This document shows, in pieces, positions 2,490 through 44,098 of a stretch of DNA of 64,000 nucleotides. Source of the stretch: Escherichia coli (lineage in GTDB: Bacteria; Pseudomonadota; Gammaproteobacteria; Enterobacterales; Enterobacteriaceae); NCBI RefSeq assembly GCF_046105845.1, contig NZ_CP151004.1. One strand, written 5' to 3'. The notes beneath the pieces are model-generated. The model did no database searches and had not been told where the DNA came from. It worked only from the letters and a program-made list of their open reading frames with translations. The position numbers and the translations under genes are program-made. Within the stretch, counting starts at the first letter, position 1. Each line of letters opens with the position of its first letter.

Positions 2490-4028
2490 TTAGTGCGCAC
2501 CACCTCCGCCGCCACCTGCGCCAAATGGCGGTTTAGCAAACCACACCAGCCCCAGCAGGACGAGGAATATCCCAGCTGACATCCAGAAGATCTCATTGGC
2601 GGAAATAATCAGCCCCTGATTGGTGATCTGCTGGGCAATCCAGCCTGATGCCTGCTGTTGCGTCATCCCAAGCCCTTCCAGTTGACTATACATCGCCTGG
2701 GCATTCGGGTTGAACGGGTTTACCGACTCAGTCAACTGCGCATGGTGCATCGACTCGCGGTTGGTCCACATGGTAGTGGTTATCGACGTGCCGATAGACC
2801 CCGCCAGCGTTCGCGTAAAGTTAGAGAGGCTCGATGCTGCCGCCAGTCGTTCCGGTGGCAAACCAGACAGCGTAATGGTGGTCAGCGGCATAAAGAAGCA
2901 GGCCACCGCAAAACCCTGGATAAACTGCGGCCAGGCCGACGCGCCAAAATCCATACCTGGTTCAAAGGTATAGGCACGCCAGTAGAAGCAGACGGCATAC
3001 ATAATAAAGCTGAAGGTTACCAGCCGCCGCATATCCAGTTTATGCGCGAAGCGGCCGATAATCGGCGACAGGATCACCGGAATAATTCCTACCGGCGCAG
3101 AGGCCAGACCTGCCCACGTTGCCGTGTAACCGTAGACCTCCTGCAACAACTGCGGCAGCAGAACAATCGCGCCGAAGTAGAGCATATACGCGAGGCTGAT
3201 ACACAAGCAGCCGATGGTGAAGTTGCGCGACTTAAACAACGACAGATCGACTATCGGGTTATCGTCGGTCAGCTCCCAGACAATCAGGAAGCAGATAGCC
3301 ACCACTGCCACCACGGTAAGGATGATAATTTCCTGTGATGAGAACCAGTCCAGCTCTTTACCGCGGTCGAGCATAATCTGCAGGCTACCGATACCAATAA
3401 CCAGCAGTGCCAGCCCCACGGCATCAATCCGCCGCCGTTCGGTGCGGGTTTCACGTCCGCGCAGGGTTTGCAGTGTCATCAACACCACCGCCACGCCAAT
3501 CGGTACGTTGATGAAGAATATCCAGCCCCAGTGGTAATTGTCACTGATATACCCGCCGAGGATCGGGCCGCAAATTGGCGCGACAATCACCGTCATCGAC
3601 CACAACGCCAGCGCGATCGAGCGTTTGGCTGGCGGGTAGTTATTCAGCAATAGACTTTGCGAAAGCGGAATTAACGGCCCGGCGACAATCCCCTGAATCA
3701 CGCGGAAGAAGATCAGCATATTCAGGCTGCTGGAGACACCACACGCCCACGACGCAATAGCAAAGGCGATGGTTGACCAGAGGAACAGTTTCACTTCCCC
3801 GACGCGCTTTGCCAGCCAGCCGGTAAGCGGGATCGAGATGGCATTCGCCACCCCGAAAGAAGTGATTACCCACGTTCCCTGGCTGAGCGATGAGCCCAGA
3901 TTCCCGGCGATAGTGGGGATCGCCACGTTAGCAATGGTGGAGTCCAGCACCTGCATGAATGTCGCCAGTGACAGCGCAATCGTCATAATGACCAGTTGCG
4001 CGCCTTCCAGCGGTTTTTGCTGTTGCAT
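2490..4028 (-). CDS. emrB: Multidrug efflux MFS transporter EmrB
   Basis: ORF 2490-4037; protein MQQQKPLEGAQLVIMTIALSLATFMQVLDST… 14-TM MFS; start moved to ATG at 4028 (MQQQK). Confidence 0.95.
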   Translation of the reverse strand: MQQQKPLEGAQLVIMTIALSLATFMQVLDSTIANVAIPTIAGNLGSSLSQGTWVITSFGVANAISIPLTGWLAKRVGEVKLFLWSTIAFAIASWACGVSSSLNMLIFFRVIQGIVAGPLIPLSQSLLLNNYPPAKRSIALALWSMTVIVAPICGPILGGYISDNYHWGWIFFINVPIGVAVVLMTLQTLRGRETRTERRRIDAVGLALLVIGIGSLQIMLDRGKELDWFSSQEIIILTVVAVVAICFLIVWELTDDNPIVDLSLFKSRNFTIGCLCISLAYMLYFGAIVLLPQLLQEVYGYTATWAGLASAPVGIIPVILSPIIGRFAHKLDMRRLVTFSFIMYAVCFYWRAYTFEPGMDFGASAWPQFIQGFAVACFFMPLTTITLSGLPPERLAAASSLSNFTRTLAGSIGTSITTTMWTNRESMHHAQLTESVNPFNPNAQAMYSQLEGLGMTQQQASGWIAQQITNQGLIISANEIFWMSAGIFLVLLGLVWFAKPPFGAGGGGGGAH

Positions 4029-4044
4029 CACACGCACCTCTGGA

Positions 4045-5217
4045 TTAGCCAGCGTTAGCTTTTACGATATCGTCGATCAGTTTATTGACAGGTGCCAGGC
4101 TGATTTCACGCGCGGTGCTTACCGCTACCGGTGTGGAACGTACTTTATTTGCCAGTACCTGACCGTCACGGTTAGTGGTATTGACGCTCACCAGCGTGGA
4201 TAAACCGATACGCAGCGGGTATTGCTCCAGCTGTTTTTGGTCCAGTTCGATACGAACAGGCAGACGCTGAACGACTTTGATCCAGTTACCAGTCGCATTT
4301 TGCGCCGGAAGCAGCGAGAACGCGCTACCTGTGCCCATATCCAGACCAACCACTTTACCGGTGTATTTCACATCATCGCCGTAAATATCGGTGGTGATGG
4401 TGACCGGCTGACCGATGCGCATATTGGCAATCTGCGTCTCTTTAAAGTTGGCATCCACCCACATATTGGTGGCTGGAACGACCGCCATTAGCGGCGTCGT
4501 TGGGCTAATTTGCGCCCCAGGCTGTACCGCGCGGCGGGAGACATAACCGGTCATCGGACTGACAATACGGGTACGCTCCAGCGCCAGCCAGGCGTTACGT
4601 ACTTCGGTGGCAGCCTGTTGCACGGCAGGCTGATCTTCCAGTTTAGTCCCCAGAATCATCGCCTGATTGGCATTGTATTGTTGAATAGCGACGTCCAGTT
4701 GTGCCTGGGCACTGGTAACGGCGTCGCGGGCGTGTTGCAGCTCTTCGCGACCAATCAGGTTGGCATTGCCCAGCGGCACACGGCGGTTGTAGTCGCTTTG
4801 TGCTTTCGCGAGGGCGATTTTTTGCACCTCAATATTCGCCTGCAACTGTTTGCTGTTAATCATCAGCTGGTGGGTTTGGCGAACGCTGGAAGCCAGTGCA
4901 GTTTTGGCTTTTTCAAACGCCTGGCGAGCATCTGTCGGGTCGAGAGTGACCAGAACATCGCCTTCTTTTACAAAATCGGTGTTATCGGCCCAGACTTTCG
5001 TCACGCTGCCAGACACCTGAGACATAATTTGAATCTGATTCCCTGCCACGTATGCGTCATCGGTTTCTTCGAAATGACGCAGTACCAAAAACCAATAAAT
5101 CCCTATCGCTACGGCAATAATTATAAAGAGCAAGGTGAGAAGGAGGAGCAGACGCTTACGTTTGCCGCTCTTCTTTACCGGTTGCTGCGGGGTTTGAGTC
5201 TCCGCATTTGCGCTCAT
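4045..5217 (-). CDS. emrA: Multidrug efflux membrane fusion protein EmrA
   Basis: ORF 4045-5229; MSANAETQTPQQPVKKSGKRKR… ; start at ATG 5217. Confidence 0.95.
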   Translation of the reverse strand: MSANAETQTPQQPVKKSGKRKRLLLLLTLLFIIIAVAIGIYWFLVLRHFEETDDAYVAGNQIQIMSQVSGSVTKVWADNTDFVKEGDVLVTLDPTDARQAFEKAKTALASSVRQTHQLMINSKQLQANIEVQKIALAKAQSDYNRRVPLGNANLIGREELQHARDAVTSAQAQLDVAIQQYNANQAMILGTKLEDQPAVQQAATEVRNAWLALERTRIVSPMTGYVSRRAVQPGAQISPTTPLMAVVPATNMWVDANFKETQIANMRIGQPVTITTDIYGDDVKYTGKVVGLDMGTGSAFSLLPAQNATGNWIKVVQRLPVRIELDQKQLEQYPLRIGLSTLVSVNTTNRDGQVLANKVRSTPVAVSTAREISLAPVNKLIDDIVKANAG

Positions 5218-40299: not shown

Positions 40300-41253
40300 T
40301 TACCATATATCTATGGGTTTTGTTTTCTGCTCATCTAAACAAAATGCACAGATGTAAGCCCCCTTACTTCGGTTGTACTGAACCGTTTCTAAAGCAGAGT
40401 CAAGATGTTTACTATCAAAGTTCCAGCTTTTTTCCATAACAGAAACACATTTTCTGCAATAGAAACTTTCTTTTGAGTTAGTATCTCCTGAATCATTTTT
40501 AGTGTAGCCAAAGAATTTTTTTGCTGATTCCTTTGAACATGCGGAAATGGCTGCAGTGAACTCATAATGAGTTTGAAGCATAGCCCATACAATACCTGAA
40601 AATTCTTCATCCTCGTCTTCATCTAGTCCTATATTAATGCCGCCAGAGGAATGTATTGCTTTATATTTATACCTATGCCATATCCAGTGTGCTGATTCAG
40701 TATTTAGATAGTTGTGAGCACGTACAACTGATGTGAAAATTAGCTCTGGCATTATATCTGTTTTTTTATCAACCGTATGCATAAAACGATTTCTTAGAAT
40801 GCGCATACTATTAAACCAAGTAATAAAGTCATCAGGCAGTGATTTAGAGGCGAAAGTATTATATACTTTAATTAAATCTTGGGCGTCTAATGTGTGGAAG
40901 TCTGAAAATGAAATGTTACCTTCACTATCAGGTTTAGGTGTATTGCGAGTTGCATTCGTGATAAGTAGATAAGGTGATATTTCGACGATAAGTCCTTTTA
41001 GTCTGAATTCAATGGATTGAAGTATCAAATTAAAAGATGTAATCAATTTTGGTCTAGCAAATAACCAATAATGCTCTAAATTTTTAATATCTGATTCTGT
41101 ATAGAATTTAGACGTTTTACAATAACTATTCCAAAGGTTTATATCTCTGTAATCATAAGCTAAATCGGCAATTTTTTCCCAAGCCTCATTTACCATGTGG
41201 TCAGCCATTGTATAAAAATCAGTCTTTGTTGGAATGTCAGTTATCATTATCAA
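40300..41253 (-). CDS. Hypothetical protein with HEPN-like Rx4H motif and C-terminal CxxC…CxxC zinc ribbon (candidate defence/Abi ribonuclease)
   Basis: 317-aa AT-rich ORF; motif RILRNRFMH (R154-x4-H159); C266RKC269 … C302AFC305. Confidence 0.65.
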   Translation of the reverse strand: MIMITDIPTKTDFYTMADHMVNEAWEKIADLAYDYRDINLWNSYCKTSKFYTESDIKNLEHYWLFARPKLITSFNLILQSIEFRLKGLIVEISPYLLITNATRNTPKPDSEGNISFSDFHTLDAQDLIKVYNTFASKSLPDDFITWFNSMRILRNRFMHTVDKKTDIMPELIFTSVVRAHNYLNTESAHWIWHRYKYKAIHSSGGINIGLDEDEDEEFSGIVWAMLQTHYEFTAAISACSKESAKKFFGYTKNDSGDTNSKESFYCRKCVSVMEKSWNFDSKHLDSALETVQYNRSKGAYICAFCLDEQKTKPIDIW

Positions 41254-41484: not shown

Positions 41485-41679
41485 TCACTCGTCAGCTGAC
41501 TCCCAAGTATCTTTCAGAGTTTCCTGAACAAAAGTTTTAGCTGAATCTTTATCGGCGGTGCGCCTAACAGAAAAACCATCGTTGCTGGTGGCTTTTACGA
41601 TCATCTCCACATCGTCATAATGCTCGCCAATGTATTGGGTTAATTCTTCCTTTAATGCGTCTACAGCGCCGTTTGGCAT
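41485..41679 (-). CDS. Small acidic hypothetical protein (64 aa)
   Basis: ORF-track ORF in AT-rich island, flanked by more than 200 bp non-coding on both sides; no recognisable motif. Confidence 0.45.
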
Positions 41680-42023
41680 TTGGTCATTTTGTCTTTGGCT
41701 ATGGAGATCTCAATACGCATAACATTTCTTTTGTACTGCGTTTGTAGACAGTATTATTCTTATCTGTGTAAATAAACAGTATCAAGACTTCGTTTTAGCT
41801 GCATAAGAAAAAAGAGATGGATACATTCGGAAAGATTTTGATGGTGGTAGGCTAAGTGAATAGCCTAAAGGTGTTTTACCCCAATTATTCCCCGGTATTT
41901 CTCCGCATAAAAAACAATCATAAAAACAACAGCCATAATAGGCTGGTTCTTAAGGGATTTTTGGTCCACGAGAGAATTTGAACCTCCGACCCCCGACACC
42001 CCATAATGGTGTAATTAATCAGG

Positions 42024-42392
42024 TTAAATATTTAGCAGATCCTCTACAATATCATTAAACCCAGATGCCTGTTTAGATACAGAATTGAATAAGTCTCTAA
42101 GTGCTTGTGTTTGCTCAAAAGTTTCCCAAAGTGTTTTATAACTTGGCGTTACAATTGCTAATACTAAGCCTTCCGCCCATGACCATTCATGTTCATCAAA
42201 ATAGTAGCGATATTTTCTGCTGTATATAACAAAATCCTTTTCCTTATATTTAGCATGAAACACAACTTGAATTATATCCTGTGTACCATTAACAAGGTTT
42301 TCAGGCGCATCAATTGCCATCCAATTTATCATTTTTTGGACAGTTAACTTATTTAATGAAACAATTAGCTTTGTGGTTTTATCGTTATGCAT
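42024..42392 (-). CDS. Hypothetical protein (122 aa), second gene of two-gene operon
   Basis: AT-rich ORF starting 2 nt after the stop of ORF 42395-42856. Confidence 0.6.
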   Translation of the reverse strand: MHNDKTTKLIVSLNKLTVQKMINWMAIDAPENLVNGTQDIIQVVFHAKYKEKDFVIYSRKYRYYFDEHEWSWAEGLVLAIVTPSYKTLWETFEQTQALRDLFNSVSKQASGFNDIVEDLLNI

Positions 42393-42394
42393 AA

Positions 42395-42856
42395 TTAGTC
42401 CAGTTGCATATCTTTCACAATTTCGTTAACTCTTGAGTTGAGTATACTCAACTTCTCATAGAGCTTCCAGGCTTGGTCTTGGTCATTGATATTAATGGAG
42501 ATTTCTTTTCTTCGAAAGATTCCTTTGGGTTTGACTTCATCAAAAAATATATCAATCTTTGAGCGTTCCTTGGTTGGAAGCCTGCTGAAAAGGCTTTCAG
42601 TTAGCACTGCACACTCAGTAAACTCCTTACGTATAAATTCTTTCTGAGTAACCCAGTCTCCAATAGCATCATTTATCAATGAGGCTTTTTTTTGAAGATT
42701 GCTATGGATTTCAGGTATTCGAACCTTGTTTCTGAGAGTGGCCTTCAATGAACGCGTCGTAAAAAAAAGTTTTACAGTTACAACAAAACCGACAATACCC
42801 GCTAGGGAGGATATGTCAGTTACCGTCTGTGATAGGGGCCAAGTCAGGATATCCAT
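42395..42856 (-). CDS. Hypothetical membrane-anchored protein (153 aa, one predicted N-terminal TM helix)
   Basis: Hydrophobic stretch SSLAGIVGFVVTVKLFFT near N-terminus; AT-rich; immediately downstream of ssrA terminator. Confidence 0.6.
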   Translation of the reverse strand: MDILTWPLSQTVTDISSLAGIVGFVVTVKLFFTTRSLKATLRNKVRIPEIHSNLQKKASLINDAIGDWVTQKEFIRKEFTECAVLTESLFSRLPTKERSKIDIFFDEVKPKGIFRRKEISININDQDQAWKLYEKLSILNSRVNEIVKDMQLD

Positions 42857-42887
42857 GATGAAAAATCCAATGCTTAAGTTGATACGA

Positions 42888-42940
42888 AAAAACCCGCATA
42901 TGCGGGTTTTTTCGTCGCTCGGGAGCCGCGGCTCCTTTGC
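42888..42940. terminator. Tandem hairpins downstream of ssrA (bidirectional terminator-like)
   Basis: AAAAAACCCGCATATGCGGGTTTTTT palindrome flanked by A/T runs plus GGAGCCGCGGCTCC palindrome followed by T-rich tract. Confidence 0.6.
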
Positions 42941-43037
42941 GTATCCTTTTTTGTCTCCTCACCGTCTGGTCGGTGTCTTGCTGAGACTTCTAACTTCCTG
43001 TTTTTGTTGGTGTTGTCCTTGCACCGTTCAATCATGA

Positions 43038-43400
43038 TTGGTGGAGCTGGCGGGAGTTGAACCCGCGTCCGAAATTCCTACGTCCTCGGTACTACATGCT
43101 TAGTCAGTCTTTACATTCGCTTGCCAGCTGCGGACGGACACGCCACTAACAAACTAGCCTGATTAAGTTTTAACGCTTCAACCCCAGGCAGGGCTTCCAC
43201 GCGATCTCTTTTGGGTTTGACCTCTCTTGATCCCCGTCCTAAGAGCGGAGGCTAGGGAGAGAGGGCTCTAAGCAGGTTATTAAGCTGCTAAAGCGTAGTT
43301 TTCGTCGTTTGCGACTATTTTTTGCGGCTTTTTACGAGGCCAACCGCCCCTCGGCATGCACCTTGGGTTTCGCAAATCCCGTCGAATCCAGAATCAGCCC
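43038..43400 (-). ncRNA. ssrA: tmRNA (SsrA)
   Basis: Reverse complement reads GGGGCTGATTCTGGATTCGACGGGATTTGCGAAACCC…GGTTCAACTCCCGCCAGCTCCACCA, including tag-peptide coding region; boundaries within about 1 nt. Confidence 0.97.
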
Positions 43401-43615
43401 CAATGTGTAACGGTAAGTATACCAGATTCATGAGTGCCATGACCAGCCTCAATGGCGTTATCGTTAAAGATTTAGCACCCATGTAGCCTGATTTTTATTC
43501 GATTAAGCAATGGGATGGCAACATTTTCGTCGGATGTGATAGCCAATAAGATGTGCATTCGCGCCGCCGGAGAGGGAGGCGCGGTGAGGAACTGGTCAAT
43601 AATTGGAGTGCAGGT

Positions 43616-44098
43616 TTAACGGTGGGCGTTTTTCATGATACGCGCTTTATCCACCTGCCATTCGCGCTCTTTGATATCTGAACGTTTATCGTGCTGTTTC
43701 TTACCTTTGGCGACGCCGATTTTCACTTTGCACCAGGCATTTTTCCAGTACAGGGAGAGCGCCACTACGGTATAGCCTTCTCGATTGACGCGACCGTACA
43801 ATGAGTCCAGTTCGCGCTGGTTGAGAAGTAACTTGCGGGTACGGGTAGGATCGCACACCACATGCGTGGAGGCCACGGCCATTGGCGTGATGTTAGCGCC
43901 AAACAGAAATGCCTCTCCGTCACGCAGAAGGACGTAGCTGTCGCTGATATTGGCTTTTCCTGCGCGCAGGGATTTAACCTCCCAGCCTTGCAGGGCAAGT
44001 CCCGCTTCGAACTCTTCTTCGATAAAGTATTCGTGACGGGCGCGCTTGTTAAGCGCGATGGTCGCTGAACCAGGTTTATGTGCTTTTTTCTTCGTCAT
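43616..44098 (-). CDS. smpB: SsrA-binding protein SmpB
   Basis: 160-aa [51 protein letters not shown]…. Confidence 0.97.

Follow-up and report, generated by a model that had tools for sequence, protein, structure and literature searches.

Phage lambda RexA/RexB and lactococcal AbiT are small gene pairs borne on mobile genetic elements, in which one product is membrane-bound, the other is cytosolic and no enzymatic motif is present. In toxin-first type II toxin–antitoxin (TA) pairs of the higBA, hicAB and mqsRA style, small coupled genes encode a basic product first and an acidic product second. At a larger scale, defence hotspots of the P2/P4 type and the tmRNA locus, which is defence hotspot #9 of the Escherichia coli pan-genome (PMC10121019), hold mutually exclusive low-GC cassettes between conserved flanks. 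Here we describe a two-gene unit, A–B, that resembles all of these in part. It lies directly behind ssrA in a 64,000-nucleotide (nt) stretch of an E. coli chromosome (contig NZ_CP151004.1; hereafter the window), which shares 99.4–99.7% identity with E. coli HS and a small number of other strains. We propose, with confidence a little short of even, that A–B is a two-gene conflict module, self-contained and horizontally mobile, of the abortive-infection or TA-like anti-phage type, carried as a 'moron' in a prophage that has since decayed.

The likeness of A–B to RexA/RexB and AbiT lies in its mobile carriage, its small size and its division into one membrane and one cytosolic product, but no sequence or profile similarity to either system was found, gene order and sizes are different, and A has one transmembrane (TM) helix where RexB has four. 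With type II TA pairs A–B shares the coupled genes and the charge order of their products, and also the company they keep, since it adjoins other TA pairs. It differs from them in lacking homology to TA families, in that B has no helix-turn-helix, ribbon-helix-helix or Phd-type domain, and in that the putative toxin is a 150-amino-acid (aa) bitopic membrane protein. Compared with P2/P4-type hotspots, the carrier here is lambdoid (HK97/lambda-like) and sits at ssrA, and the A–B module also travels outside prophages.

Genes A and B are both encoded on the minus strand with 2 nt (TAA-tt-ATG) between them, and a Shine-Dalgarno-like sequence for B is found inside the last codons of A (Table 1). Relatives have GGGAG, GGAG or GGGA at this position, in the codons for the conserved W-[DE] at the C-terminus of A, an arrangement consistent with translational coupling of the two genes. 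We compared 18 related loci (numbered with the prefix L): Klebsiella (four loci, L003–L006), Leclercia (L007), Serratia (L023 and L024), a K. pneumoniae IncF plasmid (L013), Vibrio injensis (L015), Vreelandella lutescens (L014), a metagenome-assembled genome of Pseudomonadota (L028) and seven metagenome contigs (L008, L009, L011, L019, L021, L022 and L026). In 18 of 18, an A homologue lies directly upstream of B in the same orientation, with a gap of −8 to +3 nt that is mostly 2 nt; the tightly coupled unit proposed in an earlier sequence-only reading of this DNA is thus upheld. A word-indexed search had returned relatives from Enterobacteriaceae only, at identities of at least 52%. An exhaustive profile search with B yielded at least 405 clusters (at 50% identity) with E ≤ 1e-3, nearly all of 115–145 aa, and both A and B were found in many genera. 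In the 13 pairs for which it was computed, the isoelectric point (pI) was 8.6–9.8 for A and 4.3–5.5 for B, so that the two products carry opposite charges. The remaining neighbours of the pair vary by locus and are mutually non-homologous, and we therefore regard the A–B pair as the functional unit. A three-gene system that would include the 317-aa open reading frame (ORF) further downstream was considered and rejected, because this ORF is not homologous to the neighbours of A–B at other loci.

Comparison of the window with the Klebsiella and Leclercia copies showed that A and B are real genes under strong purifying selection. For A, nonsynonymous divergence (pN) was 0.11–0.16 (0.114 in one comparison) against a synonymous divergence (pS) of 0.80; for B, pN was 0.08–0.17 (0.078 in one comparison) against a pS of 0.60–0.65, and dN/dS was 0.07–0.13, with synonymous sites close to saturation. 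Since pN is far below pS and both sequences are conserved in relatives, the two ORFs did not arise by chance.

Protein A (pI 9.2) contains one hydrophobic stretch, SSLAGIVGFVVTVKLFFT (residues 16–33), which is its sole Kyte–Doolittle window above 1.6 and agrees with the single N-terminal hydrophobic helix described from the sequence earlier. On its N-terminal side the flank has no K/R and two D/E, and on its C-terminal side five K/R and no D/E; because these charges obey the positive-inside rule, an N-out/C-in orientation is predicted. In the AlphaFold2 (AF2) model, helices span residues 19–65, 68–92, 95–108 and 126–152, and the bundle has a predicted local distance difference test score (pLDDT) of about 80–88. 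A is accordingly modelled as a bitopic, single-pass inner-membrane protein with a short acidic N-terminus and a basic four-helix bundle in the cytoplasm. Among 14 homologues, with identities down to 20%, the residues R46, P48, W130, Y133, L136 and D149 are invariant, the first two of them within a juxtamembrane R-x-P-E/Q motif. The R-x4-H spacing that the sequence-only reading had pointed out in A (RIPEIH, residues 46–51) did not survive this comparison: the arginine never changes, but at position 51 relatives have Q, Y, I, A, N, L or M in place of H. A HEPN (R-x4-6-H) nuclease reading of A was rejected on account of the variation of H51 in the 14 homologues. When the A model was compared with HEPN folds in the PDB by Foldseek, matches appeared only at E > 2, the same as for generic bundles.

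Protein B (pI 5.5) has no hydrophobic segment, its maximum Kyte–Doolittle value being 0.96, and it matches no family, in line with its earlier description as a soluble protein with no recognisable motif. Its C-terminus forms a conserved acidic amphipathic helix, SG-[IF]-[DN]-D-x-[LV]-[DE]-x-LL. W24 is the sole invariant residue, and T17, W72 and L101 are nearly invariant; this pattern of few invariant residues speaks for a role in binding and not in catalysis. From 8 close sequences, AF2 gave an unreliable model of B (pLDDT 50). A fused B homologue of 224 aa (P0152) was also seen, and its extension was uninformative. As neither A nor B contains an invariant set of catalytic-type residues, the action of the pair is more probably structural than enzymatic.

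Neither protein gave a significant match in Pfam, PADLOC-DB v2, NCBIfam or PHROGs (PADLOC being scanned at E ≤ 0.1), no Pfam family could be assigned to 109 homologues of B and 14 of A, and no match to A or B was found among PDB sequences. Sequence-profile searches of the PDB returned only coiled-coil noise, namely haemagglutinin HA2 and the DC-SIGNR neck for A and, for B, PspA at E 0.098. When PDB and BFVD were searched by Foldseek with the A model, nothing below E 0.4 appeared. In 50,697 phage genomes, tblastn detected neither A nor B. The lactococcal-type AbiT families (AbiTi/AbiTii; AbiTii domain PF18864) were rejected as relatives: they gave no Pfam match, and when the profiles of A and B were aligned by hhalign to the AbiTii protein that occupies the same site in other E. 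coli strains, the probabilities were 0.1–0.2%. No connection to phage lysis genes emerged, as the pair lies outside the lysis cassette, B has no hydrophobic segment and a single A homologue matched a holin PHROG, at E 0.018. Two small, adjacent, co-transcribed genes are what a type II TA pair would have, and the 2-nt gap and internal Shine-Dalgarno sequence are conserved across orders; no DNA-binding antitoxin and no homology to a known TA family was detected among the 109 B and 14 A homologues.

Two distant resemblances of A were found. Foldseek against AFDB50 groups A with the DUF4760, DUF2489 and DUF2730 families, whose functions are unknown, at E 5e-6 to 1.5e-4, with a TM-score of about 0.7, equal length and the same architecture of a TM helix plus a helical bundle. 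Even at a threshold relaxed to E ≤ 10, however, the Pfam hidden Markov models of these families pick up neither A nor any of 13 homologues, and no pairing of these families with a B-like gene is known. An E. coli DUF4760 protein was tried as a relative of A–B and rejected, the hhalign comparison being negative. DUF4760 proteins likewise occur in a comparable prophage-end cargo region in E. coli: a related prophage at prfC (L017, E. coli VTB96775v) carries a Panacea-domain pair and a 303-aa DUF4760 protein (3592–4503) in its equivalent end region. The other resemblance is to Lamassu LmuA (PADLOC PDLC03855), to whose model two divergent A homologues (L009:82–537 and L021:356–871) align over the same central segment and in the same register, at E 2.3e-5 and 0.062, whereas the A of the window and the other A homologues scanned (11) give nothing. 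No SMC-like LmuB and no LmuC lies beside any pair, and the LmuA matches concern 2 of 14 A-family proteins. These matches may reflect a distant link to the Lamassu effector domain or helical-bundle noise, and we treat them as an unexplained lead and not as a relationship.

The element that carries A–B could be identified from NZ_CP148393 (L012), a 44.6-kb circular record of an intact lambdoid phage with the gene order int, ParA-like cluster, attP, A, B, DinI, 317-aa gene, tail-fibre assembly, tail fibre, Lom, J and, further on, terminase, lysis cassette and Q. This phage matches the window only up to position 43070; the final ~30 nt of ssrA, the spacer behind it and the terminator are therefore brought in anew by the phage. 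The re-supplied stretch of 182 nt is about 90% conserved from E. coli to Leclercia and is best read as the attP arm. Judged by this layout, A–B is the first (attP-proximal) cargo of an ssrA-integrating lambdoid phage, placed between attP and the tail-fibre genes; the lysis genes EssD, RrrD and Rz/Rz1 of the intact phage lie far away. In the window about 4 kb of the prophage is left, comprising a tail-fibre fragment, an assembly gene, a DinI pseudogene and the cargo (38938 onward), and it adjoins insertion sequence (IS) elements. A and B are intact although the structural genes have been lost, and this survival supports the proposal of a conflict module.

The pair is rare in E. coli, being present in 12 of 5,426 complete genomes. 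Its slot has breakpoints at 42010 (on the left, against the AbiTii allele, at a tRNA-Pro relic) and at 42887 (on the right, in the terminator hairpin). Other strains carry at this place an AbiTii-domain gene (PADLOC E 4e-33; 30 genomes) or PD-T4-3 (PADLOC E 7e-137) together with a gene for an Argonaute-associated restriction endonuclease (REase)-like domain (113 genomes), and in E. coli O157:H7 (L018) the slot is empty, with DinI directly beside ssrA. Conserved flanks, formed by attP and the ssrA terminator on one side and by the tRNA-Pro relic plus DinI on the other, thus enclose mutually exclusive cassettes (A–B, AbiTii, PD-T4-3 plus the REase-like gene, or nothing) that include validated defence systems, as is typical of defence-hotspot cargo. 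The GC content of the A–B cassette is 0.33–0.37, compared with 0.50 in the flanks. The adjacent slot of O157:H7 holds the type III secretion system (T3SS) effectors EspW and EspM2, and by its gene content the same prophage region is a virulence-cargo site in that strain.

Outside this prophage, the pair was found on a plasmid and in small islands or chromosomal islets beside TA and defence genes. Its neighbours there include TIR/ThsB-like and PLD genes (L013), PDC-S51 (L014), a TIR gene (L004), and the TA pairs Phd-PIN and HigBA (L026) and Gp49-HTH (L028), while SRAP and UmuDC genes accompany it in Klebsiella. In the tail-fibre/cargo region of an A–B-bearing Klebsiella prophage, a Tad2-like (anti-Thoeris) gene was observed (L006:14365–14550), and the sister prophage L004 has its TIR-domain gene there.

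Gene B has been flagged before. Table S10 of DefensePredictor (DeWeirdt, Mahoney & Laub, Science 2026; PMC13092281), which comprises 1,041 uncharacterised predicted clusters, lists WP_000551278.1, identical to gene B, as a 'predicted novel defense gene' with a mean log-odds of 7.33 (range 6.87–7.85; cut-off 4) and no homology to known defence proteins. Among the supplementary tables of that study that were searched, the accession or locus tag of gene B occurs in Table S10 only, with no record of cloning or testing, and the accession of gene A does not occur in the searched parts of the tables. The DUF4760 cluster likewise appears in Table S10 among the predicted defence genes and shows a weak HHblits similarity to PD-Lambda-6 (PMC13092281). 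A literature search with the RefSeq accessions of the pair returned no citing paper. A–B is novel at the level of the family, within a familiar category and with one gene already predicted, and it represents a sound and well-delimited candidate rather than a discovery.

We favour a conflict module because strict pairing, coupling, opposite charges, non-enzymatic conservation, mobility, allelism with defence genes and a machine-learning prediction all point the same way. The sequence-only reading had likened the architecture to abortive-infection or TA pairs, and context favours that part of it (a slot allelic with PD-T4-3 and AbiTii, TA and TIR neighbours, and the machine-learning prediction); its R-x4-H hint is the part that fell away. 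In the mechanism that we envisage, A would be the membrane effector and B its cytosolic partner or neutraliser, and possibly a sensor as well. A would span the inner membrane once, its basic four-helix bundle facing the cytoplasm, and B, produced in step with A via translational coupling, would bind the bundle, probably through its acidic C-terminal helix, and keep A inert. Should a phage cue deplete, titrate or displace B, A would be free to self-associate at the membrane, and the ensuing collapse of membrane integrity or of the proton-motive force would stop the infection. We consider possible, though doubtful, the wider proposal that A–B founds a new and widespread anti-phage family (at least 400 clusters, in Pseudomonadota and metagenomes) in which both folds are undescribed, a non-enzymatic single-pass effector acts with an acidic partner, and the ssrA-prophage form is expressed by read-through from the tmRNA gene, whose transcription is very strong, with no promoter of its own.

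Several points weigh against a conflict module. Neither protein shows homology to any known defence or TA protein in the sequence searches, the unreliable model of B leaves its role with no fold-based backing, and B lacks the DNA-binding domain that is usual in type II antitoxins. A pore or lesion formed by A is conjecture for a protein with only one predicted TM helix, and the A–B complex, the toxicity of A, the trigger and protection against phage are all elements that we infer. Hotspots also carry cargo unrelated to defence, such as the T3SS effectors in O157:H7 and SRAP/UmuDC in Klebsiella, and only 45% of the cloned predicted units protected against the phage panel in the DefensePredictor study (PMC13092281).

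The same evidence bears on other explanations. A plain addiction module that stabilises a prophage, plasmid or island, with A as toxin, B as labile neutraliser and no anti-phage role, would account for the small coupled genes and their opposite charges, for the presence of A–B among type II TA pairs in L026–L028 and on the IncF plasmid, and for a pair that outlasts prophage decay as addictive genes do. We think it rather unlikely, as B has no recognisable DNA-binding or antitoxin domain and the alleles of the E. coli slot are defence genes and not TA genes; many TA modules are themselves defensive, moreover, so that this explanation overlaps with that of a conflict module. P22 SieA and HK97 gp15 offer another analogy, in which A–B would form a superinfection-exclusion complex at the cytoplasmic face of the inner membrane and block DNA entry or an early step without killing the cell. 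Its position as prophage cargo between the tail-fibre genes and attP, the membrane anchor and the lack of catalytic residues would suit such a role. The bulk of A, however, is predicted to be cytoplasmic and not periplasmic, no similarity to known exclusion proteins was found in PHROGs, and the pair also occurs in chromosomal islets and plasmids away from prophages, which makes exclusion quite improbable.

A similarly low probability attaches to cargo with no role in conflict, whether a modulator of the envelope or of stress or an accessory to the lysis timing or lysogeny of the carrier phage. The nearest structural neighbours of A (the uncharacterised DUF4760, DUF2489 and DUF2730), the weak holin match of one A homologue (E 0.018) and the T3SS effectors or SRAP/UmuDC genes found in the same cargo regions speak for it. 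Against this, the intact phage has a complete lysis cassette far from A–B, neither protein is found by tblastn in the 50,697 phage genomes, and the pair occurs beside TA modules with no phage genes around it. That the ORFs are spurious, in AT-rich debris left by prophage decay, might be suggested by their low GC and the absence of a database family, but a pN far below pS, the at least 405 clusters of full-length B relatives and an operon geometry conserved across orders refute it almost completely.

We also considered how the conflict-module candidate might be expressed. A scan for sigma-70-like promoters found none between ssrA and A, the minus-strand matches being the ssrA promoter and one inside A, and the interval consists of the presumed attP arm and a strong terminator. 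The ATG of A lies 27 nt past the terminator hairpin of ssrA, close to the approximately 30 nt first estimated. Read-through from ssrA is thus a plausible driver of A–B in the lysogen. The Vibrio locus also has a terminator-like hairpin about 30 nt upstream of A. Elsewhere, promoter-like hexamers lie just upstream of A (L008, L013 and L023) and L014 has a TATAAT box; because of these, dependence on ssrA read-through is not general to the A–B family.

If A–B is protective against phages, the defence catalogue would gain a compact system of about 830 bp, made up of two protein families not yet classified. A protective A–B would, moreover, provide a second example, besides PD-T4-3 and AbiTii, of the attP-proximal slot of ssrA-integrating lambdoid prophages as a defence hotspot that merits mining. 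Pfam, PADLOC and NCBIfam have no entry for this large family, which its simplicity makes amenable to rapid genetic dissection, and its promoter-less site behind the tmRNA terminator offers a testable case of prophage cargo that borrows host transcription. Were A–B only an addiction module or inert cargo, its interest would be local.

The coordinates and sequence features given in the earlier reading all agree with the ORF listing and the sequence. On the minus strand the order is smpB, ssrA, the spacer of 123 nt, the terminator hairpin, gene A, the 2-nt gap and gene B, followed by a tRNA-Pro-like fragment, the truncated DinI-like gene and the 317-aa orphan ORF (Table 1). After these come a tail-fibre assembly gene and a tail-fibre fragment, adjoining IS elements.

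Table 1. Positions of A–B and of surrounding features in the window.
Feature	Position	Strand	Basis or remark
smpB	44098..43616	minus	
ssrA (tmRNA)	43039..43401	minus	ARAGORN; Rfam RF00023, 292.8 bits
attP/attB identity block (last ~30 nt of ssrA)	43039-43068	minus	re-supplied by phage
Phage-derived spacer past the CCA end of tmRNA, 123 nt	42916..43038	minus	presumed attP P' arm
Small hairpin	within 42916-42941		between ssrA and terminator hairpin
Bidirectional intrinsic terminator of ssrA	42884..42915		fold; 14-bp hairpin, A6 and U6 arms
Gene A, 153 aa, ATG start	42395..42856	minus	ORF listing
TM-helix codons of A, residues 15-33	42758..42814	minus	Kyte-Doolittle 19-residue mean 1.89
Juxtamembrane R-x-P-E/Q motif codons of A, residues 46-49	42710..42721	minus	R and P invariant in 14 divergent homologues
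Shine-Dalgarno-like TGGA for B, inside last codons of A	42399..42402	minus	read from sequence
Gene B, 122 aa, ATG start	42024..42392	minus	ORF listing
tRNA-Pro-like 3' fragment with terminator-like hairpin (41930-41945)	41920..42011	minus	~84% identity to E. coli tRNA-Pro genes
DinI-like gene, truncated or frameshifted; conserved slot flank	41485..41679	minus	PHROG 189, E 1e-17
317-aa low-GC orphan gene in second variable slot	40300..41253	minus	no family match

The spacer behind ssrA is about 90% conserved across E. coli, Klebsiella, Leclercia and the circular phage, which exceeds the conservation at synonymous sites in the genes beside it. The spacer is presumably the P' arm of attP and may hold Int or integration host factor (IHF) sites. 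The two hairpins together fold at −35.1 kcal/mol (z = −6.8 against shuffled sequences), and the terminator stem is kept by compensatory changes in Klebsiella and Leclercia. On the other side of the pair, the tRNA-Pro-like fragment resembles the remnant of an attachment site that belonged to an earlier integration specificity, and the DinI-like gene is marked as a pseudogene by RefSeq in E. coli HS.

The 317-aa ORF gave no match in Pfam, PADLOC, NCBIfam or PHROG. Its place, a second variable slot, holds a DUF262 gene in L002 and L016; this alternative is GmrSD-like, and the ORF may be another uncharacterised defence candidate. It contains the sequence RNRFMH, which is R-x4-H-like. At 30778–30853 the window also has a tRNA that is tRNA-Met (CAT) according to ARAGORN and, in E. 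coli HS, tRNA-Ile (lysidine-type CAT anticodon) according to RefSeq, and this tRNA sits near IS and prophage remnants.

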